In this document: piece by piece, positions 13,154 to 37,413 of the stretch
Position numbering within the stretch: the stretch's first letter is position 1
Layout of the letters: every line of letters starts with the position of its first letter
Assembly: GCA_963851235.1 (NCBI GenBank)
Contig: CAWKOM010000007.1
Coordinates: forward strand, 109,429-173,428
Origin: an uncultured Acidobacteriota bacterium
GTDB taxonomy: Bacteria; Acidobacteriota; Terriglobia; Acidiferrales; UBA7541
Length of the DNA stretch: 64,000 nt
Direction: 5' to 3'
Translations under genes and position numbers: made by a program
The notes under the pieces: generated by a model
Databases searched by the model: none
What the model saw: only the letters and a program-made list of their open reading frames with translations
What the model was told of the DNA's origin: nothing

Positions 13154-14110
13154 TCACCGGCCGGTTTCTGTTTGATGCCTTATCAAGCGGCGGCAAGCCC
13201 GCATGAGGTTTCGCAGAGGGGCAAGCACCTGAGAGGGAATGTACGCCACCCCCAGAAGCAACCAGGCCTTCGCGCTCAAGGGTTTATAGCCCACAGCCCG
13301 CCGCAACTTTGCTCTCGCACGGTCCAATGCCAGAATCCGTAGATCGTCTTTGCCCCGCCTGAAGCAAACGCGAAACTTGGCCTCGCGCATCAAATCGGGC
13401 CGCGCAGCCAGCTTCGAGATTTGCCGCTCGACTTTGTCAAAGTTAATAAACAGGTCGTCGAATTGTTTCTCGAGATTCGTGTGACTGTAGTTCTGCCCAT
13501 GGCGCCGATAGTGCAACAAGACTTCGTTCTGGAAAAAAACTTGATAGTGGGCGGCGATCCGCATCCACATGATCCAGTCCTCTCCCCTGACGAAAGGGTC
13601 TTCGTCAAAAAAACCGACTTTGTCGAAACACTCACGGCGGACAAGTACGCAGGAATTGGCGATCCAGTTGTCAAAAAGCAGGGCTTCGAGAACGAATCCA
13701 CTGGGGATGAATTTATGAGCCGCAGCCGACTGCTCGGTAATGCCGGTATGATCGAACGTGGCCGCGTCAGCGGTAATGATGCCGTATTCCGGATGGGCTA
13801 GCGCGACTGCTACTTGCCTCTCAAGTTTGGAAGGCACCCAAATATCATCGGCGTCGAGAAAGGCGATGAAAGAGCCCCGTGCAATCTCCAATCCCCGATT
13901 GCGGCTTGAGGCCGGGCCACCATGACTGTTCTTGAGAAGAATCAGGCGATCCCGGTACGCATCCAGGACGCTTAGTGTTCCATCTGTCGAGCCGTCGTCG
14001 ATGACAACAACTTCAAAATCACGGAAAGTCTGGGAGTACACGCTCTCCAAAGCCTGACCAATGAATTTTTCACCGTTGTAGACAGGAATGATTACGCTCA
14101 CTAGAGGCAT
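13154..14110 (-). CDS. Glycosyltransferase family 2
   Basis: VSVIIPVYN, VIDDGSTDGT, FLDADD (DxD), EDWIMW motifs. Confidence 0.92.
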   Translation of the reverse strand: MPLVSVIIPVYNGEKFIGQALESVYSQTFRDFEVVVIDDGSTDGTLSVLDAYRDRLILLKNSHGGPASSRNRGLEIARGSFIAFLDADDIWVPSKLERQVAVALAHPEYGIITADAATFDHTGITEQSAAAHKFIPSGFVLEALLFDNWIANSCVLVRRECFDKVGFFDEDPFVRGEDWIMWMRIAAHYQVFFQNEVLLHYRRHGQNYSHTNLEKQFDDLFINFDKVERQISKLAARPDLMREAKFRVCFRRGKDDLRILALDRARAKLRRAVGYKPLSAKAWLLLGVAYIPSQVLAPLRNLMRACRRLIRHQTETGR

Positions 14111-14131
14111 TTAAAGGGGCTTCTCCAATTC

Positions 14132-15739: not shown

Positions 15740-15883
15740 CAGACTTGACGTCCCAAAATCTTATCTCAGTCGAACTACCGCGGACTTTCCCGTGCGTCAC
15801 TGCCACTGATTAAGAGGGACACCAAGCCGTAGAAGAAGCACCAGCAAGGGCCTGAAGGAGCTCGGCGGTCCAGGAACTTCGAT

Positions 15884-17113: not shown

Positions 17114-18507
17114 TGCGAGCCAACCTGGGATTCGACAGGAGTCGCGGCTGCTTGCCGGGCCACGTGAGAGATGCAGAACCGTGTCTTGCCAGAACGTTCG
17201 CGTTCAATATCGCCCACAGGTTCGAATTCCCAGTGGAGCGTGGTTCCAAAACGAATGGCCAAGCGCTTCGACAGCAAATCAAGATCAATCTGTCCAAAGT
17301 TCTCGCCAGGGACGAAGCGCACTCGGAAGTTTTGAAGCGTCTCCTGGATAATTTGCAACTTTTTGAAGCCCGGGCAGTCTTCCGCTATCAAACGATGCAG
17401 GCTAACACCGGGAACCTGATCGCCATTCGGAAGCGTAAACATATCCGCCACACGGCCAAGAATGCGCCCAATGAGCGGGTATCCACGGCCGCATTTACAA
17501 CTTTGCTCGCTCAGTAGAGCGCAATCATTGATCTTGTACCGGATGAATGGCATTCCGTCGTTTAGCAAGTCGGTGATCAAAATTTCGCAGAGGCCGGGAA
17601 CCTCGCTGTGCCGGATCGGAATAAACTCCAAGTATGCAGAATAGGGATTTAAATGTAGCCCCTGATGATACTCGCATTCTGCTGCGATCATCCCTGACTC
17701 CCGGCTTCCGTACAGCTCGAAAACGGGACACCCCAGGACGGCTTCAATTATCGCGCGTTGTTCAGAGAGCAACGGCTCCGCGGTGCAAATAGCTCCTCGC
17801 GGCCGATGGAAACTCTTTCCACATCCGCGCAAATATTCGCAGAATAGGGCCAAGGGCGTAGGATAGGCGTAGATGATTCGCGGGCGCGTTTCGTCGAGTC
17901 TCTTCCGAAACGACTCCATCACCTCTTCGTTTAGCAAAGATGCGGGAGCCCAAACCCGGCGGTTCACATAGCGGTCATAGAGCTTCCAACGCCAGCTCGG
18001 ATTTGTCGCCAGATCTACTCTCGCACCCCACAAGTAGAAAACATTGTCACCCGGCCACATTCCCGCCCAACTATTGAATCTGAGATGGACAGCATTTTTC
18101 CGCGAAAGCGATTCAGGTGACCGCAGCAGAGCAACCGGCGTATCCGTTGTCCCTCCCGTGGCGGCAGCAGGCAGTAGTTCACGTCGGTAGCGGCGAGACC
18201 AGAGTTTGTCCTGATGAAGACGCAAATCGTCCCGAGTCAGAACCGGGATCTTCGCAAGATCGGCAGGAGAGAGGATGTCGCGGGGACGTAATCCAGCTTG
18301 ATCGAATCGCTCCCGGTAGAAAGGGGTGGTGTCATAAGCATGTTGAAGGAGGCGAAGCAAAGACTGCCATTGGCGCTGAAGATTTTCCGCCATGGGCAGC
18401 TTTTCCAGCTCTTCGTATTTGCGCATCTCAGCTGCTAAACCCCGGTTAAGTTCGGGCGCACTGATCGGAAGCACGGCATTGACGTAAAGCCAGTTAATGG
18501 CGCGCAA
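17110..18507 (-). CDS. Phenylacetate-CoA ligase family (CapK-like) adenylate-forming enzyme, copy 1
   Basis: TGGTTDTP P-loop, LYGSRE, ITDL.N..MPFIRY, GRVAD. Start reassigned to TTG 18507, with GGAGG 5-6 nt upstream and a short overlap with the previous stop. Confidence 0.85.
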   Translation of the reverse strand: MRAINWLYVNAVLPISAPELNRGLAAEMRKYEELEKLPMAENLQRQWQSLLRLLQHAYDTTPFYRERFDQAGLRPRDILSPADLAKIPVLTRDDLRLHQDKLWSRRYRRELLPAAATGGTTDTPVALLRSPESLSRKNAVHLRFNSWAGMWPGDNVFYLWGARVDLATNPSWRWKLYDRYVNRRVWAPASLLNEEVMESFRKRLDETRPRIIYAYPTPLALFCEYLRGCGKSFHRPRGAICTAEPLLSEQRAIIEAVLGCPVFELYGSRESGMIAAECEYHQGLHLNPYSAYLEFIPIRHSEVPGLCEILITDLLNDGMPFIRYKINDCALLSEQSCKCGRGYPLIGRILGRVADMFTLPNGDQVPGVSLHRLIAEDCPGFKKLQIIQETLQNFRVRFVPGENFGQIDLDLLSKRLAIRFGTTLHWEFEPVGDIERERSGKTRFCISHVARQAAATPVESQVGSQ

Positions 18508-19951
18508 GATTTTCCTCCGGCTGGCTCGGCGTGCTTTCGAGATTGCCCTGCTCCGCAGTTTCGTTGATTGCGAATCGATATTTTCCCGAGATCTCGCTGG
18601 TAATGCTTTCCGTTTCCTCGACTTCGAGCGACGTGCTGCCCCCCACATAGACGGAGAGCCGCTTGCGCAGCTCGCCGGCCGTACCCGGACCATAACCGGA
18701 ACCGGGCACGACGCGGATAACGATTCGGTCGAGCGCCTTCTGAACGAACTGAACCTGACGCACTTCCGACATATCGGCAACCACCAACGTTAGAGCGGGG
18801 CCCGAGATGTGCCTGCCGTCACGGAGCACCAGGAAGTCAGTTGTGCGGCCCTGTACTTCCGAAAGCAAGGGCAGATGACGCTTGCAAGGGCAATTTTGTG
18901 CTTCCGCCCAGGCCGCAACATCACCAATCTCATAGCGGATCAAGGGCATGCTGTAATTCAAAAGATCCGTGATGACAACCTTGCCAGCCGGTTTGGGAAT
19001 CGTTTCATGAGGCACGATTTCAATGACAAAACTCTCCGAACAAACGTGCATTCCCTTGTGGAATTCACACTCGCTTGCAATCACGCTTACTTCTCGGCAG
19101 CCATAGCGGTTGAAAACGCGGCCTTGAAAAGTCTTCTCCAGAAATTCGCGCTGCCCAGGTAGGAGTACTTCGGCTGTCGTAATGATGGCGTCAAAACGGA
19201 TATCTTGAATCCGATTTTGAAGAAGGAAGCGCCCGAATAAAACTGCAGCCTGGGTATAAGCAAGCAAAACTCGCGGGCGTTTGGCTCGCAGTCTGCTGAT
19301 GAATTCTGTCCAGTCCTTTTCTTGGATCGAAGAAGTGTTGAGGAAAATCGATCGATACAAAAGTTCATTACGGAGCCGGTCCCGCCATCCTTGCGAGCCG
19401 CCCTGATCCAGGCGCGATCCCCAGAGCACCGCATGCCAATCTCCGGGACGGAGTCCGGCCCAGCCATTGTGACGAACCGTACTAGCAAATCGGGAAGCGA
19501 AGCGCTCCTTGTCGACATAGAACTGGAGAGGGCTTCCCGTCGATCCACCGGTCTGGTTTCGCACGCGAAGATTCTCAGGAAAGTTCAGAGCTCTCAACTC
19601 CACCCCGTGCTCCTGAATGTCTCTTTTGGATAAAACCGGCAGCGCAGAAAGCTGATCCAGGGAATTCAACCTTTCAATGTCAAAATCAGCTTGGTCCATG
19701 CGTTTTCGATAGAAGAGGCAATTTTCATGCGCGTGACGAAGCAACTTACGCAGGCGCTCGAGTTGCAGGCTGGCCAATGTGGAAGATTGCGCAAACTGCG
19801 TCCCCTCGATTTCGTGAAGATATTGTCGATAGGACGGATGGTCCCGCCTGACCCAGAGCGGAAAAACTGCGTTGCGGACGAACCAAGAGCTGCCCGAAGC
19901 CAGAAGCGATCTGCCTGACCGAATGGAACTCCTTTTCCTCATCAAATACAC
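18494..19951 (-). CDS. Phenylacetate-CoA ligase family (CapK-like) adenylate-forming enzyme, copy 2
   Basis: TGGSTGSP, RYGCRE, ITDLLNYSMPLIRY, GRTTD, SGKYR. Confidence 0.88.
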   Translation of the reverse strand: MYLMRKRSSIRSGRSLLASGSSWFVRNAVFPLWVRRDHPSYRQYLHEIEGTQFAQSSTLASLQLERLRKLLRHAHENCLFYRKRMDQADFDIERLNSLDQLSALPVLSKRDIQEHGVELRALNFPENLRVRNQTGGSTGSPLQFYVDKERFASRFASTVRHNGWAGLRPGDWHAVLWGSRLDQGGSQGWRDRLRNELLYRSIFLNTSSIQEKDWTEFISRLRAKRPRVLLAYTQAAVLFGRFLLQNRIQDIRFDAIITTAEVLLPGQREFLEKTFQGRVFNRYGCREVSVIASECEFHKGMHVCSESFVIEIVPHETIPKPAGKVVITDLLNYSMPLIRYEIGDVAAWAEAQNCPCKRHLPLLSEVQGRTTDFLVLRDGRHISGPALTLVVADMSEVRQVQFVQKALDRIVIRVVPGSGYGPGTAGELRKRLSVYVGGSTSLEVEETESITSEISGKYRFAINETAEQGNLESTPSQPEENLARH

Positions 19952-20087
19952 TCCAGAAAAAATTGCAACGTCCCTGCAACCTCCAGCTGCCAGCCGCCGG
20001 AGGTCAAACAGCTTTCAGAGTAATAAGCCAAAACTCCCGCAGCAAATTGCGTTCGTGACAGACGTAGACCCGCATTGAGATTGACGG

Positions 20088-21389
20088 TCATACTCTGACC
20101 TCTGAGAGTTCTGCGGAACCTTTGTGCTTAACCGACGATTCGACTTCCTTCGGAAGTTTCTCCGACTGCATTTCCGCCTTCGCCACCAATCCCGCTGCCG
20201 CTGTGAGTCCCGCCAATAAATACCAAGTGTCGCGGCCCAAGCTATGGGAGGAGTAGCCAGCCACCAACAAGCCGAGCAAGGCAAGGTTGCAAGCGCGTGG
20301 ATAATTTTGGAACCACGAAGGGCATTGGGGAATCAAACGCGATTGTCTTCGGATTAAGAAATTCTGCCGGATTACGGAGGTCAAAAAGACGACGAAAGCA
20401 CAAAAACCGAGCGATCCCATTTCGGAAAGCAACTGAAAGTACAAAGAATGAACGTTGAGCCAATGCCCAGTCCTGGCGCCATGCACATCGACGAATTCTC
20501 CCACTCCGATGCCGGTCAGAGGATTGCTCTTAAACATTTCCCAGGCTTGGCCCCAGACTTGTACGCGCCCTTGATAGGATCCATCTGCTTGCAAGTTGTC
20601 GACAGTCTCAATTCGCCCACGATACTGCTCCGGCATCGACACCCAAAGAACAGCGATCAAGGTTAAAACCGCGAATATGGCGGGAACGCGGTATTTCTGA
20701 AGCGAGGCATAGGCAAGCGCCATGACAGCAAACACGATGTAAGAGGTGCGTGACCCCGTGAGCACGACCGTCCACAAACAGATGGCCGTCAATGGCATCA
20801 TTACCCACCGAATGCGCCCCGCATCCTTACGCAGAAAGAGCAAAAAGAGTGGCAGTGCAGTAACCAGAGTGATCCCAAGAGCATTGGGATCGTCTGAAAA
20901 GCTATTGAGACCGACGGCTCTTTCAATACCCATGCGGACTTGGTAATCGCCCGCGTAATACAAGAAAGTGCTCCACACACCAAGCCAAGCTACAAGCACA
21001 CAGATCGTAATTAATACAATCCGCAAACGGCGTGCGTTGGTCGCCAAATTCAGGATCAACAAGTGATACATGATTACTTTCCCGAAATCGACACTGTGTT
21101 CGAAAGCACCGCCCTGCCAAAACGCGAACGGAACGGTGCAAAACATGGCTCCCCAGAGAAAGAGAAGGGCTTTGCTCACATTGGGCACAGCCAATCGCCG
21201 CTGGTGAACCAGAAAGGAAAGCAAGACAATCAGAGTGAAGGTTCTCTGCACATGAATAGTATCCAAGATGGGATATAACTCACCTGGGCGGACAAAGATA
21301 ATCGCCAGCACTGCGATCAGACCCACAAAGGGGTTAAACAATGCCCAAATGGCCAGCAGCGCTAGCGCTGAGGAGATTGCCCAGACCAT
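20088..21389 (-). CDS. O-antigen ligase / Wzy-like polymerase family membrane protein
   Basis: Multiple TM helices; DPNALG, LTGSR, R...W..AW.M...NPLTGIG.G.F, HSLYFQLLSEMG motifs (Wzy_C). Confidence 0.88.
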   Translation of the reverse strand: MVWAISSALALLAIWALFNPFVGLIAVLAIIFVRPGELYPILDTIHVQRTFTLIVLLSFLVHQRRLAVPNVSKALLFLWGAMFCTVPFAFWQGGAFEHSVDFGKVIMYHLLILNLATNARRLRIVLITICVLVAWLGVWSTFLYYAGDYQVRMGIERAVGLNSFSDDPNALGITLVTALPLFLLFLRKDAGRIRWVMMPLTAICLWTVVLTGSRTSYIVFAVMALAYASLQKYRVPAIFAVLTLIAVLWVSMPEQYRGRIETVDNLQADGSYQGRVQVWGQAWEMFKSNPLTGIGVGEFVDVHGARTGHWLNVHSLYFQLLSEMGSLGFCAFVVFLTSVIRQNFLIRRQSRLIPQCPSWFQNYPRACNLALLGLLVAGYSSHSLGRDTWYLLAGLTAAAGLVAKAEMQSEKLPKEVESSVKHKGSAELSEVRV

Positions 21390-24300
21390 CAGCGGCCCGC
21401 CTCCGAGTCGGCAGGTCTCAGCTCTTGCACAGACCGGTCTCGACGAAAGGATCCTTTGTGGTCCGGCGCCCGGACAACTTGCGCCGTACTACTCTCAGCC
21501 AGTTCCTTCTCGAAAACCTTGCAAACCGGCGCAAAACGAAAGTCCCGCAGCATTCTCGACAATTTCGATTCCATGGAGCGCAACCCTGTGTATTGACGAA
21601 AACGGGCTCTTTGAGACGCGGGGAGCCGCGGCTGCAACGCATCAATTTCCCACGGATGCAAATAGACGACCGCTGAATGCCCAGCCTCCTGGTTGTATCT
21701 GCGCAGGCCCCAGCGCGAGTAGCGGTAGGGTAGCATCCGCAGGTAACCGCCCCCACCGATGGGAAGATTATTCCCTCCCCATCGGCAAGTCGCGATGGGA
21801 AGTTCCAGGATCGCACCCGCACTGATGCGATGTGGCACTCGAGGTGCCGTCGCATTGTCATAAATGTCGTGACGTATAGGATGTACGCTCGAGTCGTAGA
21901 CAAAACCCAAATCGGCAAGCACATCGGCCGCCCAGTCCGTGCCAGGTACCATCGAAAAGCTTGGGGCACGATAACCTCGGATTGGCATTCCCCCGGCATC
22001 TTCTATCGCGCGTTTTGCTCTCAAAGTATCCGCATGAAATTCATCAGGAGAGAGCCTGAATATTGGTCTGTGCCAGTAACTATGGCATCCAACCTCGTGG
22101 CCGAGTTTGACCGCCTCGCGCACGAGGCCAGGGAATCGCTCGGCAATCCAGCCCAGGAAGAAGAAAGTGCCGCGCACATCATGAGCCGCCATCAACTCAA
22201 AAAGCCGATAAGTGCTGCTCTGCACACGTGAGGGCAAATGTTTCCAATCCTCGCGAGACACGGCACTGGTCATCGCTTCGGTATGAAAATAATCCTCTAC
22301 GTCCACCGTAAAAGCATTCAGCGTCGCGGACTGGTTCTCAAAATCATGAGTGCTCTGTTGGCGTTCGGCCGCAGGCGACGCGATGTTCGCGGCACTCACA
22401 CGCGCGCTCATTCGACCTGCTAAGGTGTTGCTGAATTTGCTTTGGATGTCCTCCGAAAATCCCTCTTTTTCATTCCTGCCCTCGCCGGAAGGGGAACTGC
22501 GCCGCAGGGACGTCAAGAGATCAGCCAAGAATCCAAAACCAAGGCCTAAGTGAATCGTGGCATAGATTCCAGGCGCAGCCACCAGGTGGCGCCAACCACG
22601 CCGAATCCCAAGTTGCGCAGAGGACGCCAGTACAGCTCCAAGATAGACCCCAAGGGTCGCCAGATAGATATACGCCCCGTACTTTGATATTGGCGTCAAA
22701 AGAAGGCCCAGGAAAATCCACGCGATAAAAACGGCCGGCATGGCGCCAGCAAGCGAAAAAGCCTCCGGATGCAGGCGCACAAAACGGCAGCGCCCTTTTC
22801 CATACCGAACCATTTGGTTCCAAAGCCTGGAGATGGAATTGCGAGCATGGTATTGGATCGTGAGCTTCGGGCTGATGTACGAAGACAAACCTGCCTGAAG
22901 CACCCGATAGTTGAAGTCGACGTCCTCGCACGCATCCAATTCTTCGTTGTAAAGTCCAACTCGTTCAAACACTTCGCGCCTATAGCTCGCGCCGGAACTC
23001 GTGGGGTCGACGAAGCCTTCCAAATTCGTCGAATAGATAGTCGAGTCGAGACCATGTCCGATCAGGCTGCTCCTCGCATCCGCCACCACTGTCTGAAACG
23101 CGCTAGACCCCGGCGCGGTGAGAGGCTGCGGACGGCAAAGACAAGCAGCCCCGGTGCTGGAAAAAAGTCGTGCCGTATCACGCAAAAGTCCGCGGCTGGG
23201 AATGTGACAATGGCCATCGATGAAAACAATCAAGCTGCCGCGGCTGTGTCGGACGCCCACATTGCGCCCGGCACTGGATAGCCTGCGAGAATTTTGGAGC
23301 AACTGGATAGACACATCAGTGGTTCTTGTTGCCTCCTCAACGATTTGTGGCGTCTTGTCAGTCGAGTCTCCGTCGACTACGAGAATCTCGTATCGATCTT
23401 CGGGGTAATCTTGGTTCAACAAGCCATCGAGCGTGATCCCGAGATGTTTTTCCTCGTTTCTCACCGGAATCACCACGGAAACGAATGGGCATGACTCCGC
23501 ACCGGGTGCCGAGGTAATTTCAGTGTGCTCCTGGATCGCTTCCTCTCTTAGCGGCGCCACAGCGAGGGGAGGATCACCGAGACACTGCCGGTAAATCGCC
23601 AGCAAGGATTCGCGCTGCTGAATGGGCGAAAAGCGGGTTTGTACCCATGCACGGCCAGCCTGACTGAGGACGCCCCCCAGCTCTGGATCATGAAGCACTG
23701 CACTCAGGGCACGGCCAAGCGAGGCCGCGTCGCCAGCCGGTACCAGAAGGCCGGTTTGCCGGTCGTAAATTAACTCTGGCACACCTCCCACTGCAGTGGC
23801 CACAACCGGGGTTTCCGCGGCGAGGGCCTCCAAAATCACGTTGGGTATCCCCTCCGTTAGCGAACAATTTGCCAAAACGTCGAGAGCTCGCATCCAGTCC
23901 GCGACGTTTTTCTGAAATCCTGGCAGGAGAACAATTCCGTCCAAACCGAGCCGCTTGATTTGCGCCTCAAGCGCCGCGCGGTCACGGCCTTCTCCCAGAA
24001 GCACAATCTTCAGCTCCGGGAACTCACGCGCCAGCTCGACGGCAGCCTCTACGAGAAACCGCTGCCCCTTTTCGACGCTGAGCCGACCGATGGCCCCGAT
24101 CAACTTGGTCTGCTGGGAGAAGCCTAACTGCGCTTTCATCACTTCGCGATTTGCCGCCGGCGCAGCATTAGCAGCCGCCAGCATGGCGTTCCTGACAACG
24201 GCAACACGGGGCCGCAGTTGGGAGTTCCGCGAGAGCAATTCCGCTTGTGCCTCAGAAACGCAGACAATGCGATCCGCAAGAGGAAGTAACCGCCGGTCAA

Positions 24301-24706
24301 GGTATTCATATGCTCGCACTCGCAGTGTTTCCGCCGTCCAACCTCTGCAAAAGGCAATCTGGGGAACACGGGCCAGCTTCTTGGCAAGAGCCCCGATCGT
24401 GTTCGCCTTGAAGCCGTGCGTGCACAGCAATCGGATGTTTTGTTCCTTGAGGAAGGAGGCCAGTTCCCAGACGGCTCGCAAATCGAATCGGCCTGAAGAA
24501 CGAGACTCGTAGATCGGTAGCCCATGCTCTTGAGCACGGATGAGGATTTCTGCCTTCTCGAGCTGGTCTCGGAATGAGCCTATCCACGCCTCAACGCCGG
24601 CCTCTCGGATGTCCCGCGCATGGTGAAGGATCTGTTTCTCCGGGCCGCCGACAAAGTTGCTGGCGATGAGATGAAGTATCCGAATAGGATTGGGGCTGGT
24701 TTTCAT
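21389..24706 (-). CDS. Triple fusion: GT4 glycosyltransferase + GT2 glycosyltransferase (ExoA-like, with TM helices) + XrtA-system-type polysaccharide deacetylase (DUF3473)
   Basis: Single 1105-aa ORF. GT4: GGPEK, EGIPNVILEA. GT2: VSVVIPVRNEE, VDGDSTD, FIDGH, CEDVDF. Deacetylase: FTVDVEDYFH, GCHSYWH, GYRAPSFS, YLHPWEID. Confidence 0.88.
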   Translation of the reverse strand: MKTSPNPIRILHLIASNFVGGPEKQILHHARDIREAGVEAWIGSFRDQLEKAEILIRAQEHGLPIYESRSSGRFDLRAVWELASFLKEQNIRLLCTHGFKANTIGALAKKLARVPQIAFCRGWTAETLRVRAYEYLDRRLLPLADRIVCVSEAQAELLSRNSQLRPRVAVVRNAMLAAANAAPAANREVMKAQLGFSQQTKLIGAIGRLSVEKGQRFLVEAAVELAREFPELKIVLLGEGRDRAALEAQIKRLGLDGIVLLPGFQKNVADWMRALDVLANCSLTEGIPNVILEALAAETPVVATAVGGVPELIYDRQTGLLVPAGDAASLGRALSAVLHDPELGGVLSQAGRAWVQTRFSPIQQRESLLAIYRQCLGDPPLAVAPLREEAIQEHTEITSAPGAESCPFVSVVIPVRNEEKHLGITLDGLLNQDYPEDRYEILVVDGDSTDKTPQIVEEATRTTDVSIQLLQNSRRLSSAGRNVGVRHSRGSLIVFIDGHCHIPSRGLLRDTARLFSSTGAACLCRPQPLTAPGSSAFQTVVADARSSLIGHGLDSTIYSTNLEGFVDPTSSGASYRREVFERVGLYNEELDACEDVDFNYRVLQAGLSSYISPKLTIQYHARNSISRLWNQMVRYGKGRCRFVRLHPEAFSLAGAMPAVFIAWIFLGLLLTPISKYGAYIYLATLGVYLGAVLASSAQLGIRRGWRHLVAAPGIYATIHLGLGFGFLADLLTSLRRSSPSGEGRNEKEGFSEDIQSKFSNTLAGRMSARVSAANIASPAAERQQSTHDFENQSATLNAFTVDVEDYFHTEAMTSAVSREDWKHLPSRVQSSTYRLFELMAAHDVRGTFFFLGWIAERFPGLVREAVKLGHEVGCHSYWHRPIFRLSPDEFHADTLRAKRAIEDAGGMPIRGYRAPSFSMVPGTDWAADVLADLGFVYDSSVHPIRHDIYDNATAPRVPHRISAGAILELPIATCRWGGNNLPIGGGGYLRMLPYRYSRWGLRRYNQEAGHSAVVYLHPWEIDALQPRLPASQRARFRQYTGLRSMESKLSRMLRDFRFAPVCKVFEKELAESSTAQVVRAPDHKGSFRRDRSVQELRPADSEAGR

Positions 24707-24718
24707 ATGGGTTTTCCG

Positions 24719-25921
24719 CTACCGGAGAGTTTTGCCCCAGGCGTTACGCCGAAGCCCGAGCGCTGCGCCGGCATGCACAAGCAGCATCCAGCACACATAG
24801 AACGGAAGCGTAGCCAGAGCTCGCAGACGCCCACCCTGTATGTGAGGAATCCGAGACAAAACTAGCCCCATATAAACACAGAGCGAGAGAGAGGCGGTGA
24901 TGACCGCATAGCGCAACAGCGAACCCGCGCCCCCGGTGCCCAGAACAGAAGTGCCAGCCACTGCGCCCAGGAGCAAGTACAGCAACAAGAACCGGCTCGT
25001 CAGGACCAGAGCGAGCGCCATCTCCGCCAACCGAAGTGATCGCCTTGCAATGCTCGCGCGCAAGAGTTGCGGAACATACTTCGTCATCACCTGAATGGTT
25101 CCCGAGGCCCACCGCAATCGTTGAGGGAAGGCATCACTTGCCCGGCGTGTCGCTCGGGACACAACTGTTGCCGATTCTAAGAATTTCACGCGAACATTTT
25201 GCAGCGCCAATTGAACCGAATATTCCACATCCTCGACGATGGAATAGGCCCCCCAGGGCAGCGCTTCTATAATCTCCCGCTTCAGGCAAAACCCGTTTCC
25301 CAGAAGAAAACCCATCCATCCGAATCGCTCGCGCGCGCGCCAGTACAAATCATTTTCGGCACGCTTGCTGGCAAAGGTCAGCAGGGAAAAATAGGAAGTG
25401 TCTGCAAGGTCAAACAGATTCTGCGCCTGCAAGGCGGTAGCTCCTGACTGGATTCCTCGGTCCATGGCTTCAAGAAAACCTGGACAAACTTGAGTGTCCG
25501 CGTCAATAAAGATCGCTGCGTCAAAAGTGGTCGCGTCTACTCGATCGAGAGCCCAGCGCAACCCCCTGCCTTTTCCCGGTGCGTTAGGCTCCGTCCGCTC
25601 CCAGCATTCGAATCTTTCCTCCCGGACAACGGCCATAGTGCGATCCTGGCAGTTGTCGGCAATCACGAGGACATTTCTCAAGTCTTCGGGATAATCCTGC
25701 GCGCGCAGACTCTCCAGTGTTGGACGGATACCCTCTTCTTCGTTGTGCGCCGGAATCAGAACAAGAAACCTTGTCCTGGGCCGCAGCCGCTCCACAGCGG
25801 TCGGATCCGGTGACGACGAAAAAAAACCTACCAGTGCAAGGAACAAGACATAGCATGTTCCTGCCAGCGCTAAAGTGGCCGCCGCTCCACCAAAGATTAA
25901 AAGGACCGAATGAAAATTCAT
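24719..25921 (-). CDS. Membrane glycosyltransferase family 2 (IcaA/cellulose-synthase-like)
   Basis: LIPAHNEE, IADNCQD, FIDAD, VEDVE, QRLRW (QxxRW) plus N- and C-terminal TM helices. Confidence 0.88.
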   Translation of the reverse strand: MNFHSVLLIFGGAAATLALAGTCYVLFLALVGFFSSSPDPTAVERLRPRTRFLVLIPAHNEEEGIRPTLESLRAQDYPEDLRNVLVIADNCQDRTMAVVREERFECWERTEPNAPGKGRGLRWALDRVDATTFDAAIFIDADTQVCPGFLEAMDRGIQSGATALQAQNLFDLADTSYFSLLTFASKRAENDLYWRARERFGWMGFLLGNGFCLKREIIEALPWGAYSIVEDVEYSVQLALQNVRVKFLESATVVSRATRRASDAFPQRLRWASGTIQVMTKYVPQLLRASIARRSLRLAEMALALVLTSRFLLLYLLLGAVAGTSVLGTGGAGSLLRYAVITASLSLCVYMGLVLSRIPHIQGGRLRALATLPFYVCWMLLVHAGAALGLRRNAWGKTLR

Positions 25922-26030
25922 TTCTCTTCCTTGATACTCACCTCTTCAAGCAAGTATCGCTGCGGCTTTGCAACTAGCTGGCCCGCGCCCGACACAATCG
26001 CCGCGACACCGCTCAATGAATCGTCCCAGC

Positions 26031-27422
26031 TCACCTGGCGCCCCGTCCAAAAATCACCGTCTTGATGGTCTGGAAAATGATGAGTAGGTCTAAGGCCAGC
26101 GACATGTTCTTGATGTAGTACAGGTCGTAGCGCATCTTCTCCTTCGACTGTTCCAAAGAGGCGCCATATCCACAATTGATCTGCGCCCAACCTGTGATCC
26201 CGGGACGAATAATCTGGCGCAGATAGTAGTAAGGGATTTCTTGCTTCAGCCACGCGTCGAACTCGGGCCGCTCCGGCCGGGGGCCGACGAAATTCATATC
26301 CCCGCGGAACACGTTCCAGAGTTGGGGAATCTCGTCGAGCCGCGTTACCCGCAAAAACCGCCCGACCCGAGTGATTCTGGGATCTTTATCGCTCGCCCAC
26401 GTCGCGCCCGTGTCCGCTTCGGCATCAGCCCGCATCGTCCGGAATTTGTAGCAGTAGAATAGTCCGCCGCCCTTTCCCACACGCTGCTGGCGGTAGAAAA
26501 TGGGGCCACGTGAAGTAAGTTTAATTACCAATGCAATGAGGGGAATTATCGGAAGCACCAGGACCAGGAGCGACATCGAAACGACGAAGGCCATCAATCG
26601 TTGCACCACCAGAACCATAGGATGCAGCCGGAATCCATCTGAGAAAATAAGCCAGCTCGGAGACAATTGATCCACTTCGATTTTTCCAGAAATCCTCTCC
26701 AGCAACTTGCCTCCGTCATCCACCTGAAATCCCTTCAAGCGCAGGTCCAGGAGTTCGCGCACCGGCATCGTGCTTCGCCGGTCTTGCAAGGCAACGATGA
26801 TCCGCTTAATCTTTTTTTCAGGAACTAAAGAGCCCAGCTCGTTCGGATTGCCCAGAAACGGCAGGCCGTTGATATTGAATCCTGTTGCATCGGTCATCCC
26901 AATATAGCCAACCAAGCGGATACCTAGCTCGTGCCTGCTCAGGATTTCAGCTGCTAGCGATCGGGCTAGCGGACCCTCACCTAGCAGGATGGCGGTGTCG
27001 GCAAATCTCGCTGACCGGTTGATGGCAAAAAAGGTCTCGCGCGAGGCAGTTAGAGAAATCCCAATTAGGACAACACCAATCAGAAAGATGCCTCGTCCCA
27101 GCTCAAAGGGCGGGTAAATGTAACAGACAACCGCAACCACCACACAAACCACTCCTAGAACGACGATGAGGCGCGTCAATACTTCTCGGGGATTGCTCAA
27201 CACAATCGAATCGTACAAATCGAAATAATAGAGGCACATAAAACAGAGCAATGAAATAACCACCACCTTGAAGAATCCCTGCTGATAGCTCAGCACTAGC
27301 TCCCCATCACTCCCAAATCGAAGGAAGACAGCGGCTACCATCGCCAAAAAGATGATCAACGTTTCTGCGACCGCTAAAAGCAGCGTTCTTCCGGGAATAT
27401 AAGCGTCAAAGAACTTAATCAC
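26031..27422 (-). CDS. Priming polyprenyl glycosylphosphotransferase (XrtA/PEP-CTERM-system sugar transferase type)
   Basis: GTG start; N-terminal TMs, CoA-binding-like middle, C-terminal Bac_transf motifs YKFRTM, DPRITRVGRFLR.TRLDEIPQL.NV..G.M.FVGPRPERP, PGITGWAQ. Confidence 0.93.
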   Translation of the reverse strand: MIKFFDAYIPGRTLLLAVAETLIIFLAMVAAVFLRFGSDGELVLSYQQGFFKVVVISLLCFMCLYYFDLYDSIVLSNPREVLTRLIVVLGVVCVVVAVVCYIYPPFELGRGIFLIGVVLIGISLTASRETFFAINRSARFADTAILLGEGPLARSLAAEILSRHELGIRLVGYIGMTDATGFNINGLPFLGNPNELGSLVPEKKIKRIIVALQDRRSTMPVRELLDLRLKGFQVDDGGKLLERISGKIEVDQLSPSWLIFSDGFRLHPMVLVVQRLMAFVVSMSLLVLVLPIIPLIALVIKLTSRGPIFYRQQRVGKGGGLFYCYKFRTMRADAEADTGATWASDKDPRITRVGRFLRVTRLDEIPQLWNVFRGDMNFVGPRPERPEFDAWLKQEIPYYYLRQIIRPGITGWAQINCGYGASLEQSKEKMRYDLYYIKNMSLALDLLIIFQTIKTVIFGRGAR

Positions 27423-27426
27423 CTTG

Positions 27427-28311
27427 TTATTCCTTGCTCGTCGCGTCCGGCACCGACATGGATTCTTCGATATCTCCTGCTGCGGACATAGAGTAGTAAT
27501 ACCCGTAGCGACTGGTCACCACATCTGCATCGCCATTCATCACAATTCCGGCGATGAAGTTTCCCTCAAGAGCCGCGAGGGAATTTGGGATTGCCGTTGC
27601 GGGGGTAACAGAGAGACGGGTCACCAACAATGAAGCATCCATGAGCGTGGCCAGATGTGGCGTGTCCGCAAACAAACTGAGCGGCGCGCTATCCACCACC
27701 ACCCATTCGTATTTTTCTCCGGCTTGCTTCAACAGCTCGGCCATGCGCGGCCCTTGCAGCAATTCTCCAGGCGCTGAAGAGTGATGACCCGCTGGAATAT
27801 AATGGACACTCCACGGTTCGGCCAGGCGTCGAGTAGCCGTCCGTTCATCGATCTTGTTCTCAAGAAGCTCAGCCAGCCCTGGCATTGCTTCAAGGCCTAA
27901 TACCTCGTGAACGCCCGAATGCCGCAAGTCAGCGTCGATAAGCAATACGTGCTGCGAGGTCTTTGCCAGGCTGAACGCAAGATTGACGGCAACAAGAGTC
28001 TTCCCCTCTCTCGGAACCGCACTGCAGACCAGCAGTTTCCGGAGCGGTCGTTCTGACCGAATTTTCTGCAACCGGTGCCGAAGCACTCGGAATTTTTCGG
28101 CACCGGGCGAGTGATTGTCTCCGCTGGCTAAGACGTGCCGTTCTGGTGTAATCCGGGGGACGAGCCGAATATCGGCTTCTGGGACAGGGACCGACAGCTC
28201 ACGTACTTTTGACACCTGGTTTCCGCGAGCGCTCTTCGCCCATGGAGTGAAGGAGTCTTTGCCAGTCTTCTCTTGCTCCGATTTGCGTAATGCATCGAAT
28301 ATCCGGCTCAC
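27427..28311 (-). CDS. CpsD/CapB-family tyrosine kinase (Wzc cytoplasmic domain)
   Basis: MSRIFDAL start, E.FR.LR, Walker A SAVPREGKT, LLIDADLR, VVDSAP, C-terminal Tyr cluster RYGYYY. Confidence 0.9.
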   Translation of the reverse strand: MSRIFDALRKSEQEKTGKDSFTPWAKSARGNQVSKVRELSVPVPEADIRLVPRITPERHVLASGDNHSPGAEKFRVLRHRLQKIRSERPLRKLLVCSAVPREGKTLVAVNLAFSLAKTSQHVLLIDADLRHSGVHEVLGLEAMPGLAELLENKIDERTATRRLAEPWSVHYIPAGHHSSAPGELLQGPRMAELLKQAGEKYEWVVVDSAPLSLFADTPHLATLMDASLLVTRLSVTPATAIPNSLAALEGNFIAGIVMNGDADVVTSRYGYYYSMSAAGDIEESMSVPDATSKE

Positions 28312-28527
28312 GTAATCTCCTCAACCTGCGCTCAACGTTTCTTCTTGAGACTCAGTTCCATCTTGCGCAACGATTTCGTTCGGTTTGCTGTGAATGCGCC
28401 GCATTCCAAGAGACTGGCTTTTCGTCTCCACTAACTCCACGACCAGTAAGCCATTGACTTGCGAATCGCACTTGTCCTTGGCTCGCTCGTAGTTCTTCGC
28501 TCGGATCGGATGAGCTTTCACCCACTT

Positions 28528-30114
28528 TCAACTCAACCTGTGTGTGTAAATCGCCACCGCAATCGAAACCAATGTAAATATCGCTATCACGGCAATTTCG
28601 ATGAGCCAGCGTATTCGCTTGGACTTGCGTCCTCTAACAGTCAGGAGAATCGGGATCCGCACGAGTATCGGCAGTACGGTCTGCTCTCGAATTTCCTTCT
28701 CATTGCGAATCGAGCCATCCTGGAATTCGCGCAAGCCGGCCGCGCATACGCCTAGGCATAGACCCAGCGCCCAACCACCTAACAGAATCAGCGGACGATT
28801 TGGTTTGAAGGGCTTATCGGGCAAGGATGGTGGATCGATGATGCGAAATTGCTCACCCTCCTGGCGCTTCTCAAGGTTGGTCGCCAGCTCCGATTCCAGG
28901 GATTTTTGCAGCAGCGATTGATAGTATTCCCGGGAATTCTGGTAATTCCGCGTCACTTCGGAAAGCTGCTGCTCTCTCACCGGGGTCAGGCTCAGGTGCG
29001 TTTGCAAGTCCGTAATCTGCTTGCGCACTTTTTCCGCCTGTGCTTTGTCATTCGCGATCTCGACATCCACCGCCTTTAGCCGGCTTTCCACTTCAGCAAG
29101 TGCCGGTTGATTGGGCGTATCCGCACCTGCCGTCGTCGGAGTTCCCTCCTTGCCGTTGGTTGTATCCGTCGCTGACTTATGCAGGCTTTCCCATTTCGCG
29201 ATCTCTTCTTTGACGCGCAAGACATCCGGATGTTGCGGCGTATACTTGGCCTCGAGTTCCGCCAGCTGCCTTTTCAGCTCCCCAATCGACCCCTCTGATC
29301 CACCTCCCGCATATGTTTCGCCTCCCTGCGGGGCATCAGCAGATGACTGCTCCATCACTCGATACTCAGAGCGAAGAGACTGCAGGTAAATTTTTTGTTG
29401 CTCGGCTCGGCCTATGGAATCGGTAATCGACTGGAGTTGCACCTGAAGGCTGTTCAGGATCTGCAAATTGCTCTGCTCCTGCTCAGGCAACTCCCCGAGG
29501 TACCGCATCTTGTACTGGCGCAGTTCCTCTTCTTGCTTTTCAAGGTCTTTGTGAGCCTGTTCGAGCTGGCTCTGAAGAAAATTCGTTGTGCTCAAGGATT
29601 CCTGGGCACGCGATTCCAAGCTCTTTTCAATGAACATGGAAGTCAATTCGTTGTTGATTTGCTGAGCTAGCAGCGGATTCTCCGCTGAGAAGGAGATACG
29701 GAATGATGTCGTCTGGTCATCTCTCGCCGCCCCCGGGGCAACCTGTATCGCGATGTCCTGCCTCATCTGGTCGACGAGGTCATCCATTGTTGTGCGGCTT
29801 CGCTTTTTCGAGTACAGATTGAACTGCTTGATCAAGCTCTCCAGTCTTGTCCTGCTCAAAATCTGCTGCGTCATACTTTGCAGCCGGCTGTCGATATCCG
29901 AAACCACGTTCGGCGTGACATACTTCTGCGGTACTTTCTGCTCCTCCACTTGAATCATCGCCTCTGAGCGATAGACTGGCGGCCAAAAGAGCGCAACCGC
30001 AAATGCCAGAATTCCGACTCCAAAAAATGGCCCAAGTAAATACCATCTCCGGCGCACAGCAATATCGCTGTACTTCTTCCAGTCGAACGGTTTCTGGTCG
30101 CTAAGAGATTCCAT
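28528..30114 (-). CDS. Polysaccharide chain-length determinant (Wzz/GumC-like, Wzc periplasmic half)
   Basis: TM near each end, coiled coils, Y.PQHPDV, F.IIDPP.LP..P.KPNR motifs. Confidence 0.9.
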   Translation of the reverse strand: MESLSDQKPFDWKKYSDIAVRRRWYLLGPFFGVGILAFAVALFWPPVYRSEAMIQVEEQKVPQKYVTPNVVSDIDSRLQSMTQQILSRTRLESLIKQFNLYSKKRSRTTMDDLVDQMRQDIAIQVAPGAARDDQTTSFRISFSAENPLLAQQINNELTSMFIEKSLESRAQESLSTTNFLQSQLEQAHKDLEKQEEELRQYKMRYLGELPEQEQSNLQILNSLQVQLQSITDSIGRAEQQKIYLQSLRSEYRVMEQSSADAPQGGETYAGGGSEGSIGELKRQLAELEAKYTPQHPDVLRVKEEIAKWESLHKSATDTTNGKEGTPTTAGADTPNQPALAEVESRLKAVDVEIANDKAQAEKVRKQITDLQTHLSLTPVREQQLSEVTRNYQNSREYYQSLLQKSLESELATNLEKRQEGEQFRIIDPPSLPDKPFKPNRPLILLGGWALGLCLGVCAAGLREFQDGSIRNEKEIREQTVLPILVRIPILLTVRGRKSKRIRWLIEIAVIAIFTLVSIAVAIYTHRLS

Positions 30115-30160: not shown

Positions 30161-31177
30161 CTAGCGCTCGTCGAGCATTGCGGGCCGCGGCTTCAAAATA
30201 AGTCGGCGCTTCGCCGGCATTCCGCCCTGCTTTATCTTATAAAGCAGAGCGCGATAGCTGATGTTCAAACATTGAGCCGCCAGCTTTCGATTCCATCCAC
30301 TGTTTTCCAGCACCTTGAGAATGAGCCGCCGTTCCACGTCACGGGTCACCTGGCGAGTTAGTTTCTTTAGGCATATCTTCTGCCCGGCTTCGTGCTCAGG
30401 AGTGATGTCCGAACGGATTTTCAGAAGTAACTCGCCAGCCACTATCTGTTCCGAACCCAAAATCACATACCGTCGAACTAGATTCTCCAGTTCGCGGATG
30501 TTGCCCGGCCAGTGATACTTCTGCATGAGCCCCAGGAGTTCCGAGGAAACGGGCCGCGGAGGCACGTCTTTCTTTTCCGAGTGAAGTTTCAAAAAATGAT
30601 CTACAAGGTCTGGAATGTCCAGCGCTCTCTGCCGCAGCGGCGGGAGCCAAATATCAAATGCATTGATCCGGTAAAACAAGTCCTGCCGAAAACGCCCCGC
30701 TTCAACTTCTGCTTCCAAATCGCGATTTGTCGCGGAGATGAATCGGACTCTGGGGGAGTGGTGTTCGGTGTTCCGGCCTTCAACTTCCAATAGCTTCTGC
30801 AGGAATTTCGTTTGTTCGCCGGCATCAAGGTCTGCAATGCCATCAAGAAATAAAGTCCACCCATCCGCACACTCTGGCCGTCGAGCCCCCATTTCTTTTT
30901 CATGCCAAAGGTAGCCACCGGGCACTTCGGAAGTCCCACTCTCGAAGAGGCTCTCAGGAACGGAGGAACAATTGATCTTCACAAATGGCCCCGATTCCGG
31001 AAGCAATCGTGAATATATGGCAAACGCCAACGTTTCCTTGCCCGTCCCGCTCTCCCCCCGAATGCAGACCGGAATGTTCGTATTCCGAAGTCTCTCAACC
31101 TTTTGCTGCACAACGTGCATTCCCGCACTTCTCCCAAAGATCAGAGAGTCTGGTGGAGTGGAGTGTAGATTATTCAT
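30161..31177 (-). CDS. Degenerate sigma54 enhancer-binding protein (AAA+ plus Fis-type HTH; no receiver, no GAFTGA, Walker B DE>DG)
   Basis: GESGTGKE, FVKINC, TLFLDGI, DLFYRIN, WPGNIRELEN, HTH NISYRALLYKIK; the GAFTGA loop is replaced by GTSEVPGGYLWHEKEMG. Confidence 0.85.
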   Translation of the reverse strand: MNNLHSTPPDSLIFGRSAGMHVVQQKVERLRNTNIPVCIRGESGTGKETLAFAIYSRLLPESGPFVKINCSSVPESLFESGTSEVPGGYLWHEKEMGARRPECADGWTLFLDGIADLDAGEQTKFLQKLLEVEGRNTEHHSPRVRFISATNRDLEAEVEAGRFRQDLFYRINAFDIWLPPLRQRALDIPDLVDHFLKLHSEKKDVPPRPVSSELLGLMQKYHWPGNIRELENLVRRYVILGSEQIVAGELLLKIRSDITPEHEAGQKICLKKLTRQVTRDVERRLILKVLENSGWNRKLAAQCLNISYRALLYKIKQGGMPAKRRLILKPRPAMLDER

Positions 31178-31249
31178 AAGTCGTCGCTTATAAGCGGGCC
31201 ATGGCGGTCGTTGCGTCCCAAAAACCGCACCTTCGTCACAAAAGGTGGG

Positions 31250-31264
31250 GCACTCCGAATACCA
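31250..31264 (-). promoter_or_regulatory. Candidate sigma54 -24/-12 promoter for the minus-strand EPS operon
   Basis: Minus strand TGGTATTCGGAGTGC (GG-N10-GC), 73 nt upstream of ATG 31177. Confidence 0.5.
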
Positions 31265-31506
31265 AAGCCTGCCACCCTTTGGACAGTTCGTACAAATTTT
31301 TCACATTTCCATATACCCAGTAAAATACTGAATACAATAGAGTTACGCACGACCATCCGAGCCATCACAGGGGCAGCATCGCTCTCACTGGCTACGCCAC
31401 ACCCGTGAATATAGGAAAAGTTTTTCACATGCCCAGCACCTCAATTCCTCCTGCGAGGCAGAAAACCCAGAACAAGGATTTTCACTTTAGTGATTCTGGC
31501 AGGCCG

Positions 31507-31589: not shown

Positions 31590-31605
31590 TGGCAGATGAA
31601 GTGCA
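31590..31605 (+). promoter_or_regulatory. Candidate sigma54 promoter for the methyltransferase-larA-like-deacetylase-GT-C operon
   Basis: TGGCAGATGAAGTGCA (GG-N10-GC). Confidence 0.6.
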
Positions 31606-36931: not shown

Positions 36932-37170
36932 TTCGCCCTGGGACCCACCAGCACCTGGAGTCAATATTTGCACCGTCTGCTGTCACCTTCCCTTCGTGGC
37001 CCGGGACCATTTATGGCCGTTCCGAGGCCCATGACCGCCTTTCTGCCCCTACCCACCACTTTGAGCCTGAGGAAAGTTCATTCTTGGCGTGTGAATAGCT
37101 TTTCCCATTTCCTCCTGCAAAGCCACTTACCGGGGGACCTCCTCCTCCAGGGATAGCCGCCATATTCCGC

Positions 37171-37251: not shown

Positions 37252-37266
37252 TGGCATGTCAGGTGC
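37252..37266 (+). promoter_or_regulatory. Candidate sigma54 promoter for comA-comB-ATP-grasp operon
   Basis: TGGCATGTCAGGTGC (GG-N10-GC). Confidence 0.65.
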
Positions 37267-37413
37267 GACTCTGATGCGCTGTAAGCCTCCTGCACCATGG
37301 ATGATTGGGCCCCCTATTCGCCGTTTGAGCGAGGCCGAAAGAGCGCAGGAGAGCTGCTGGAACGCCAACAACCACGTAGCCCCCGCAGTCGGGAGAAAGC
37401 GGACTCAAAAATT

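Follow-up and report, generated by a model that had tools for sequence, protein, structure and literature searches.

A receiver-less enhancer-binding protein with degenerate sigma-54-contact loops at the head of an exopolysaccharide operon: a possible brake within a conserved sigma-54 circuit

Promoters of the sigma-54 type are silent without an ATP-driven activator, and the arrangement is usually described as a one-protein, one-promoter relation. What, then, is the role of a regulator that has lost its power stroke at a locus where the promoters, an IHF-like site, the enhancer and its phasing are all retained? We analyzed a 64,000-nucleotide stretch of DNA (the window) from an uncultured soil bacterium of the Acidobacteriota (assembly GCA_963851235.1, contig CAWKOM010000007.1, positions 109,429 to 173,428), in which a gene at 30161–31177 on the minus strand (the regulator) encodes a derivative of the sigma-54 enhancer-binding proteins (EBPs) and heads an exopolysaccharide (EPS) operon. 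The functional statements made here about this protein are all deduced from sequence. They suggest that the regulator probably stays in the sigma-54 circuit, tuning the switch rather than driving it, and they point to a second control layer built from degenerate paralogs.

Motif state and ancestry of the regulator

Motifs were called on an alignment of the regulator to P0001 and P0002, the intact activators that the window also encodes.

30161–31177, minus strand: the regulator gene (338 aa), a receiver-less EBP derivative without GAFTGA and without the Walker B Glu
31034–31057, minus strand: Walker A, GESGTGKE, intact and retained in 9/9 orthologs
30860–30943, minus strand: remnant of the L1 loop, ESGTSEVPGGYLWHEKEMGARRPECADG in place of ESELFGYEKGAFTGA..., GAFTGA lost
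30836–30856, minus strand: Walker B, TLFLDGI, with the catalytic Glu changed to Gly (Gly codon at 30839–30841)
30746–30796, minus strand: degenerate L2/pre-sensor-I region, KLLEVEGRNTEHHSPRV, with a 3-aa deletion relative to the intact paralogs
30662–30691, minus strand: arginine-finger segment, FRQDLFYRIN, intact
30482–30511, minus strand: sensor II, WPGNIRELEN, intact
30227–30343, minus strand: Fis-type helix-turn-helix (HTH_8) with recognition helix NISYRALLYKIKQ
49270–50361, minus strand: P0001, an intact receiver-less paralog (GAFTGA and Walker B DE, recognition helix ISYRTLLYK), with its own -24/-12 element at 50395–50410
51782–53242, minus strand: P0002, an intact response-regulator EBP (receiver, AAA+ domain, recognition helix ISYKALLYK), in an operon with a histidine kinase (53279–54529)

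The reading frame of the regulator is uninterrupted, with no stop or frameshift. Pfam matches were obtained for Sigma54_activat (PF00158, residues 13–176, E 9e-34), AAA_lid_14 (PF25601, 2.9e-20), and HTH_8 (PF02954, 2.5e-11). The AAA+ domain starts as early as residue 13, which leaves no room for a receiver, and the domain search found no other N-terminal domain in the protein. None of the curated NCBIfam models reached its cut-off (best 218 bits vs 795). Against the model of PrsR, the PEP-CTERM-box response regulator (TIGR02915), the regulator, which lacks a receiver, scored 180.5 bits vs a cut-off of 502.6; the intact paralog P0002 was also under this cut-off, at 375.8 bits.

In the L1 loop, ESELFG..GAFTGA is replaced by ESGTSEVPGGYLWHE, with GYLWHE at the position aligned with GAFTGA, and sensor I (SATNR) is retained. 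A frameshift origin of the scrambled loop was ruled out: the remnant is as long as the intact loop, which indicates point changes, and the other frames hold no GAFTGA. An AlphaFold2 model of the regulator was confident for the AAA+, lid, and helix-turn-helix parts (mean predicted local distance difference test score, pLDDT, of 81.9), with weak spots in the L1 remnant (residues 81–99, pLDDT <50, modelled as disordered) and in L2 (~66). Foldseek matched this model to NtrX, ZraR, FleQ, NtrC1, and PspF with probability 1.0, and also to VpsR, which the regulator matched in sequence too; the best full-length match was NtrX. With GAFTGA, L2, and the Walker B Glu lost, the regulator is expected to lack the defining activity of an EBP, and its motifs suggest that it is catalytically dead.

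A preliminary description of this DNA had proposed a receiver-less EBP in which Walker A, the arginine fingers, sensor II, and the helix-turn-helix are kept, GAFTGA is replaced, and Walker B reads TLFLDG; alignment and Pfam bear this out, and the L2 degeneration with its 3-aa deletion is absent from that account. The likeness that it saw between the recognition helix (ISYRALLYK) and those of P0001 and P0002 is correct as well. Of the 22 EBP-like genes in the genome, which also carries rpoN, just four have the ISY[RK]xLLYK helix, all on the same contig: the regulator, P0001, P0002, and a second degenerate protein described below. The description further placed the gene behind its own -24/-12 element and at the head of an EPS operon. 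The element is real and recurs at the same aligned position in 8/8 orthologous loci, and the gene order of the operon is the same in every ortholog locus.

Public gene calls mostly start the protein at Met20 (319 aa), with GGGAG ~10 nt upstream of this codon, and the stretch PDSLIFGRSAGM upstream of Met20 is conserved in orthologs. The 19 residues before Met20 (31118–31177, minus strand) include a family-wide (L/I)(I/F)GxSxxM motif. Since this segment is conserved in orthologs, the Met1 start is more likely.

After a 46-bp gap, the regulator gene is followed by the gene for an XrtA-system chain-length determinant and then by those for a tyrosine-kinase-like ATPase, a priming glycosyltransferase, and further EPS functions.

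13154–30114, minus strand: same-strand EPS genes after the regulator, with TIGR03007, TIGR03013, and TIGR03006 above their cut-offs

The chain-length determinant (TIGR03007) occupies 28528–30114 on the minus strand, and the priming glycosyltransferase corresponds to TIGR03013. Other genes of this arm encode a GT2 protein, a GT4-GT2-deacetylase fusion (deacetylase TIGR03006), Wzy-like and flippase-like proteins, and others. The divergent arm carries methyltransferase, LarA-like, and deacetylase genes, followed by ComA-ComB, exosortase, and EpsI.

The closest public relatives of the regulator are 54–58% identical to it, and a HMMER search of 1.84 billion cluster representatives gave no relatives closer than those of the word-based search. 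Orthologs occupy the same slot, with the methyltransferase arm on one side and the chain-length determinant on the other, and differ in motif state. One, from a Terriglobia metagenome-assembled genome (MAG; JAIQEV01), is fully intact, with GAFTGA and DE. Two, one of them from a Candidatus Sulfotelmatobacter MAG, are GAFTGA-less with DE and L2 kept. Five lack the catalytic Glu (DG, DG, DA, NG, NG), all with an 18-aa deletion of L1. The expectation that orthologs conserve the substitutions thus holds for the motif-less proteins, but not for the intact positional ortholog or for the two that lost only GAFTGA. In a tree built without the L1 and Walker B columns, the nine orthologs including the regulator form one clade (support 100). 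Inside it, the regulator pairs with the group of five loop-deleted proteins (97), and the intact protein stands as the sister of all six (81). This topology indicates at least two losses of GAFTGA within the orthogroup and a single loss of the Glu that preceded the loop deletion.

Selection on the gene was evaluated with codon models, a check of the ratio of non-synonymous to synonymous change (dN/dS) for which the preliminary description had called. For the six degenerate genes omega came to 0.116, for the full set of nine to 0.121, and domain by domain to 0.10–0.12; dS is saturated, which limits any branch-specific omega for the regulator. Three metagenome copies (99% nucleotide identity) differed from the window at 7 synonymous and 4–5 non-synonymous codons (dN/dS 0.18–0.22). 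Three of the five variable residues lie inside the 28-residue loop remnant, and the 7 synonymous changes lie elsewhere. The motif-less orthologs thus keep their losses under constraint, and in the regulator purifying selection holds everywhere but in the part that once carried the lost function. One and the same recognition helix, NISYRALLYK, occurs in 9/9 orthologs; across the 7 other full-length orthologs the segment NISYRALLYKIKQGGMPPKR does not vary, the regulator has MPAKR, and P0023 diverges after ...LLY.

These data bear on the possibility that the gene is a decaying relic, kept just by its position between the promoter and the EPS genes. The branch of the regulator is long, with 13 private changes at columns invariant in seven other orthologs vs 2–5 for each of the others, and close congeners lack the gene. 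A relic would nevertheless have to keep 338 codons open, hold omega at ~0.12 across six degenerate orthologs that are 55–89% identical, preserve one recognition helix throughout the clade, and concentrate its within-population changes in the loop remnant; a second, independent degenerate family shows the same pattern. Omega of ~0.12 together with the population dN/dS of ~0.2 leads us to reject neutral decay, and a pseudogene is ruled out by the open frame, omega, and the population pattern. We regard the relic explanation as very improbable.

No close ortholog of the regulator was found among 40 GTDB relatives; the best matches there are intact proteins in the slot of P0001, beside a conserved response-regulator EBP. 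The regulator therefore seems to be locus-specific and to travel with its EPS arm. When positions ~13000–46000 were compared with 24 same-genus genomes, the regulator, the enhancer motif, and close copies of the chain-length determinant were missing (best match 52% identical, in one genome), and the hub of kinase, EBP, and PilZ genes at 49–55 kb was conserved. In this comparison the EPS arm has the look of a module that varies or was transferred.

Control DNA of the EPS locus

The two divergent arms are served by the following elements.

31249–31264, minus strand: -24/-12 (sigma-54-type) promoter of the regulator and EPS operon, TGGTATTCGGAGTGCC, 72 nt upstream of the ATG, found in 8/8 orthologous loci
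31590–31605, plus strand: divergent -24/-12 promoter, TGGCAGATGAAGTGCA, of the methyltransferase/LarA-like/deacetylase arm, TGGCAR-N5-RTGCW in 8/8 orthologous loci
31321–31333, minus strand: IHF-like site, ATTCAGTATTTTA (WWTCAR-N4-TTA), between enhancer and promoter
31415–31447, minus strand: enhancer UAS1, a tandem palindrome GAA-N6-T(G)C-N9-GAA-N6-TTC common to the two divergent sigma-54 promoters
31414–31429, minus strand: site B, the invariant half of UAS1, TGTGAAAAACTTTTCC
31290–31305, minus strand: extra partial copy of site B, TGTGAAAAATTTGTAC, ~26 bp upstream of the -24 element, in this genome only and not in the ortholog alignment
37072–37104, plus strand: enhancer UAS2, a perfect tandem palindrome, GAAAGTTCATTCTTGGCGTGTGAATAGCTTTTC, upstream of the ComA operon
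37252–37267, plus strand: -24/-12 promoter, TGGCATGTCAGGTGCG, of the ComA-ComB-...-exosortase-EpsI operon, with orthologous promoters of the form TGGCAC-N5-GTGCG

A strict scan for TGGCAC-N5-TTGCW with up to 2 mismatches missed the regulator's promoter, which was found by scoring GG-N10-GC across orthologs; its orthologs read TGGTAT/TGGCAC ... GTGCC. The start of the IHF-like site lies exactly 69 bp upstream of the -24/-12 start in the five loci that match the pattern, and in the other three a similar sequence occupies the same aligned place. The tandem palindrome of the orthologs is GAA-N6-TTC-N9-GAA-N6-TTC, with centres 21 bp apart, and site B, written TGTGAAAA-NN-TTTTCC, is invariant across eight orthologous intergenic regions. 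Site B and the -24 element are separated by 153/155, 165/166, or 177 bp, depending on the locus, so that the spacing grows by ~11 bp, about one turn of the helix, at a time. All 8 loci conserve the -24/-12 promoters, the IHF-like site, and the enhancer, irrespective of the state of the regulator. At 31228–31247 on the minus strand, where the regulator's sigma-54 promoter is predicted to start transcription, a terminator-like hairpin CACCTTTTGTGACGAAGGTG is followed by CGGTTTTTGG; this feature is not conserved in orthologs.

UAS2 lies ~165 bp upstream of the ComA promoter. Six ortholog loci (L002, L031, L006, L007, L030, L008) carry two perfect tandem copies, one at the regulator and one at ComA. 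In L004, where ComA is missing, one perfect copy and one copy with 1 mismatch were found, the latter beside the promoter of another gene, and L029 and L032 end before ComA, so just the regulator-side copy was seen. Genome-wide, the tandem element stands next to sigma-54 promoters at just UAS1 and UAS2. A third exact site B, TGTGAAAAATTTTTCC, was located at contig 109322–109337, ~100 nt left of window position 1. It lies ~100 bp upstream of a -24/-12-like sequence, TGGTCAATCATTTGCA (read by eye), that heads an operon for GT4, a methyltransferase, and a 790-aa TPR protein, and this operon probably belongs to the same regulon.

The distribution of site B was then compared with that of the proteins. 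Exact site B was not found in 39 of the 40 relatives, all of which lack an ortholog of the regulator's clade; 17 of the 40 carry an EBP in the P0001 slot, several with an adjacent P0002 ortholog. Both other genomes that carry the regulator's clade have site B. Site B therefore tracks the protein clade of the regulator.

The same DNA allows a different fate to be weighed, namely that of a classical atypical EBP at sigma-70 promoters, acting like VpsR, TyrR, PhhR, HupR, or NtrX as a repressor or class-II activator whose oligomerization is controlled by ATP binding. A possible target would be a sigma-70 promoter overlapping site B, as glnAp1 overlaps NtrC sites, and a -35/-10-like pair does flank site B, with 9/12 matches in the window and two orthologs. 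The pair is weak (6–7/12) in 5/8 loci, however, and at UAS2 the -10-like hexamer, ATTTCC, is poor as judged by eye; with a convincing pair in just 3/8 loci, this candidate promoter was rejected. All characterized atypical EBPs act on sigma-70 promoters, one of them, VpsR, has a non-consensus Walker B and governs an EPS locus (PMC6158489), and the best full-length structural match of the regulator is itself an atypical EBP. What every locus keeps, by contrast, are -24/-12 promoters, an IHF-like site, and a phased upstream enhancer, and the regulator lacks the sensory N-terminal domain that all the named examples possess. The -24/-12 type of the conserved promoters leaves the TyrR-type alternative raised in the preliminary description with less support at this locus. 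We consider this alternative improbable.

Candidate activator and sign of the effect

Since the degenerate protein would be unable to fire the promoters, an intact EBP must do so. The best candidate would be the kinase-controlled P0002, whose presumed site shares GAAAA/TTTTCC half-sites with the enhancer.

54537–54550, plus strand: symmetric palindrome GGAAAATATTTTCC, a close relative of site B, abutting the start of the kinase gene

This palindrome lies ~190 bp upstream of a sigma-54 promoter (54739–54754) of a small PilZ gene (~54793–55144), and GGAAAA-WW-TTTTCC is conserved at the same place in four congeners, of eight that carry the palindrome once. It is likely the enhancer of P0002. The C-terminal part of P0002 is 83–95% identical among congeners. 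The conserved palindrome at the P0002 operon, together with the conservation of P0002 itself, would make P0002 the natural binder of GGAAAA/TTTTCC half-sites. As site B contains the same half-sites, overlapping enhancer recognition by P0002 and the regulator is plausible.

For P0001, the putative enhancer in its own genome is GCAAAG-N9-CTTTGC, and the orthologs in two other genomes show differing A/T-rich palindromes. The receiver-less intact EBP in the P0001 slot is just ~40% identical among congeners, far below the value for the neighbouring C-terminal part of P0002, so these adjacent paralogs evolve at very different rates. In three congeners (L014, L017, L020; G012, G001, G009), the P0001-slot EBP has GAFTDA for GAFTGA and a Walker A of GENGTGKG, and the GAFTDA form may be another step toward lost sigma-54 contact.

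In the reading that we favour, the regulator would descend from the EPS locus's own receiver-less sigma-54 activator. It has lost both loops that touch sigma-54 (L1 with GAFTGA, and L2) along with the Walker B Glu needed for ATP hydrolysis. Still in place are the parts of the nucleotide pocket (Walker A, the Asp of Walker B, and sensor II), the arginine fingers that act in trans, the lid, and a DNA-reading helix that has not changed. Family members without the Glu mostly retain the Asp (DG, DA, DQ, DN, DC), a pattern that resembles an ATP-locked state more than random decay. This retained Asp, together with Walker A, the arginine fingers, and sensor II, suggests that the protein still binds ATP and oligomerizes, and it would occupy the enhancer without remodelling the sigma-54 polymerase. 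The regulator would then hold the enhancer and/or join intact subunits in non-productive rings. In the mixed HrpR/HrpS ring, a Thr-to-Ala change in the GAFTGA of either partner abolishes activation (PMC3105312), so a GAFTGA-less subunit would be expected to poison a ring. Because the regulator is the first gene of a sigma-54 operon, such a brake would amount to negative autoregulation of EPS synthesis; in lineages with an intact ortholog, the same wiring would give positive feedback. A brake is favoured on this HrpR/HrpS precedent; loss of the activation surface with DNA binding and oligomerization retained would be the simplest route to a dominant-negative paralog. We hold this view, and the sign that it assigns to the effect, with a confidence somewhat short of even.

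The anti-activator of the preliminary description, a competitor for shared enhancers or a poison of hexamers, is thus preserved in part. It fits the sigma-54 promoters, the IHF-like site, the phased enhancer, the kept ATP and oligomerization motifs, and the half-site shared with the palindrome beside the response-regulator EBP operon. Competition for the same enhancer agrees with the half-site common to UAS1 and the palindrome beside the P0002 operon; simple competition for identical sites is not established, since the invariant half of the enhancer co-occurs with the regulator's clade and not with the two intact paralogs.

Several points weigh against a brake. The computations made here are compatible with either sign, the regulator's branch is fast, and cross-recognition of site B by the intact paralog is a presumption drawn from shared half-sites. 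Three further points suit at least as well a positive role, in which the regulator would be the anchor subunit of a mixed ring. As the sole binder of the locus-specific enhancer, it would recruit intact paralog subunits through AAA+ contacts; these would supply the GAFTGA loops and hydrolysis, the arginine fingers of the regulator would complete its neighbours' active sites, and the protein would be needed for activation of the EPS operon. First, site B tracks the regulator's clade and not the intact paralogs. Second, the geometry of enhancer, IHF-like site, and promoter is preserved with its helical phasing in degenerate lineages, and such phasing is a need of an activating complex. Third, the two GAFTGA-less orthologs with DE and L2 still seem to have a functional ATPase site, which a pure occupancy brake does not need. 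Conservation of the arginine fingers, Walker A, and sensor II also agrees with anchoring, and co-assembling EBP paralogs are known, as in HrpR/HrpS (PMC3105312), RedR1/RedR2 (PMC10084136), and the nitrogenase regulators (PMC9542535). On the other side, HrpRS strictly requires both GAFTGA loops, so that rings with loop-less subunits may be dead (PMC3105312), the whole loop is deleted in five orthologs, two of which also changed the Walker B Asp to Asn, and formation of a heteromer is an assumption of this explanation. We judge an anchoring role to be less likely than not, but regard it as the main rival of the brake.

Degenerate relatives and known systems

A second receiver-less degenerate EBP is encoded at contig 89349–90317, ~20 kb left of the window, with L1 deleted, Walker B DQ, and the recognition helix ISYKSLLYK. 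It heads an operon for a Wza-like protein (Poly_export), an unknown protein, and AAA_22 behind TGGTAGAGAAGTTGCA, a TGGTAG-N5-TTGCA element. Its orthologs in six congeners uniformly lack L1/GAFTGA, carry D[CNG] at Walker B, and precede the Wza gene; a -24/-12-like element was found upstream in 5/7 members of this family (the six congeners and the copy in the window genome).

To place both families, a tree was built from 138 receiver-less proteins of the regulator's helix-turn-helix family, drawn from representatives of the 1.84-billion-protein library, closer hits, and genes of the relatives, largely one per 50%-identity cluster. GAFTGA is missing in 54 of the 138, 34 of which keep DE and 20 of which do not. 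Among the related receiver-less representatives sampled, roughly one in two is without GAFTGA. The GAFTGA state changes at least 15 times on this tree, and at least 8 of these changes are forced by well-supported branches. In other Terriglobia, an intact member stands 2–3 kb upstream of the chain-length determinant, which indicates that an intact activator at the head of the EPS genes is likely ancestral. Two database relatives, P0042 and P0138, show the reverse combination of an intact GAFTGA with Walker B DG. They may contact sigma-54 without hydrolysing ATP, like laboratory Walker B 'trap' mutants.

With 54 of 138 family members lacking GAFTGA, automated annotation as 'sigma-54-dependent activator' mislabels many proteins, and reconstructions of sigma-54 regulons in Acidobacteriota may be affected. 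We tentatively propose, at a confidence well below even, that receiver-less EBP paralogs of Acidobacteriota repeatedly became sigma-54-blind pseudo-activators, often hydrolysis-dead yet ATP-binding, wired into EPS modules of enhancer, IHF-like site, and promoter, and that they form a distinct class of enhancer-resident non-catalytic subunits gating signal-controlled intact paralogs. If so, the feedback of an autoregulatory circuit would change from positive to negative through the loss of a single loop, and bacteria would have in these proteins a counterpart of dominant-negative transcription-factor paralogs and pseudo-enzymes. They would differ from the characterized atypical EBPs, all of which have abandoned sigma-54 in favour of sigma-70 promoters. 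The locus offers a testable case of single-loop loss rewiring feedback in the control of exopolysaccharide and biofilm.

In a literature search that covered atypical EBPs, EBPs without GAFTGA, and the sigma-54 and PEP-CTERM systems of Acidobacteria, no account of a protein like the regulator was found; the 2006 PEP-CTERM paper deals just with PrsR/PrsK/PrsT in its intact form (PMC1569441). The group of atypical EBPs, with VpsR, TyrR, PhhR, HupR, HsfA, and NtrX, combines EBP homology with an absent or altered GAFTGA, often a non-consensus Walker B, and sigma-70 targets (PMC6158489). The regulator shares their motif state, with GAFTGA lost and Walker B non-consensus. It differs in that its own promoter and the two others on the same enhancer are of the conserved GG-N10-GC type, although it may have targets elsewhere, and in having neither a sensory nor a receiver domain at its N-terminus.

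Among these proteins, VpsR of Vibrio cholerae (PDB 7v2b) resembles the regulator as an EBP with AAA+ domain and helix-turn-helix, without GAFTGA, with a non-consensus Walker B, and as master regulator of an EPS locus (PMC6158489). Unlike the regulator, VpsR has a receiver domain, needs cyclic di-GMP (c-di-GMP), and acts on sigma-70 promoters without -24/-12 elements, whereas the regulator has no N-terminal domain and stands among conserved -24/-12 promoters with a phased enhancer. In EBPs of the FleQ type that bind c-di-GMP, an Arg-Asn 'R-switch' directly follows Walker A, accompanied by partner motifs. The regulator reads GKETLAFAIY after Walker A, with no Arg-Asn when the motif is taken as generally described. 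TyrR, PhhR, HupR, and NtrX likewise have an EBP fold without a working sigma-54 contact and use nucleotide binding for oligomerization or repression rather than remodelling; they differ from the regulator in their sensory N-terminal domains and in working with the sigma-70 polymerase (PMC6158489).

Receiver-less EBPs of the PspF type and the intact Terriglobia relatives share with the regulator an AAA+ domain and helix-turn-helix without a sensor, but the regulator has lost GAFTGA, L2, and the Walker B Glu. Its ancestors are evident in the intact positional ortholog (JAIQEV01) and the large intact clade. In HrpR/HrpS, FleQ/FleT, RedR1/RedR2, and VnfA/AnfA/NifA, paralogs encoded nearby meet in one ring or at one promoter as specialized subunits (PMC3105312, PMC10084136, PMC9542535). 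Both partners of such pairs keep the sigma-54 contact loop, whereas the regulator would be a loop-less pseudo-ATPase and its co-assembly is hypothetical. NtrC at glnAp1/glnAp2 illustrates that an enhancer-bound EBP can repress from the same sites that it uses for activation. FleQ at the pel promoter switches between repressor and activator without sigma-54 (PMC3424551). NtrC and FleQ are catalytically intact, however, and change role in response to a signal, whereas the change in the regulator is fixed in its sequence. The regulator is thus best filed as a variant of the atypical EBPs, a receiver-less pseudo-activator retained inside a sigma-54 enhancer circuit.

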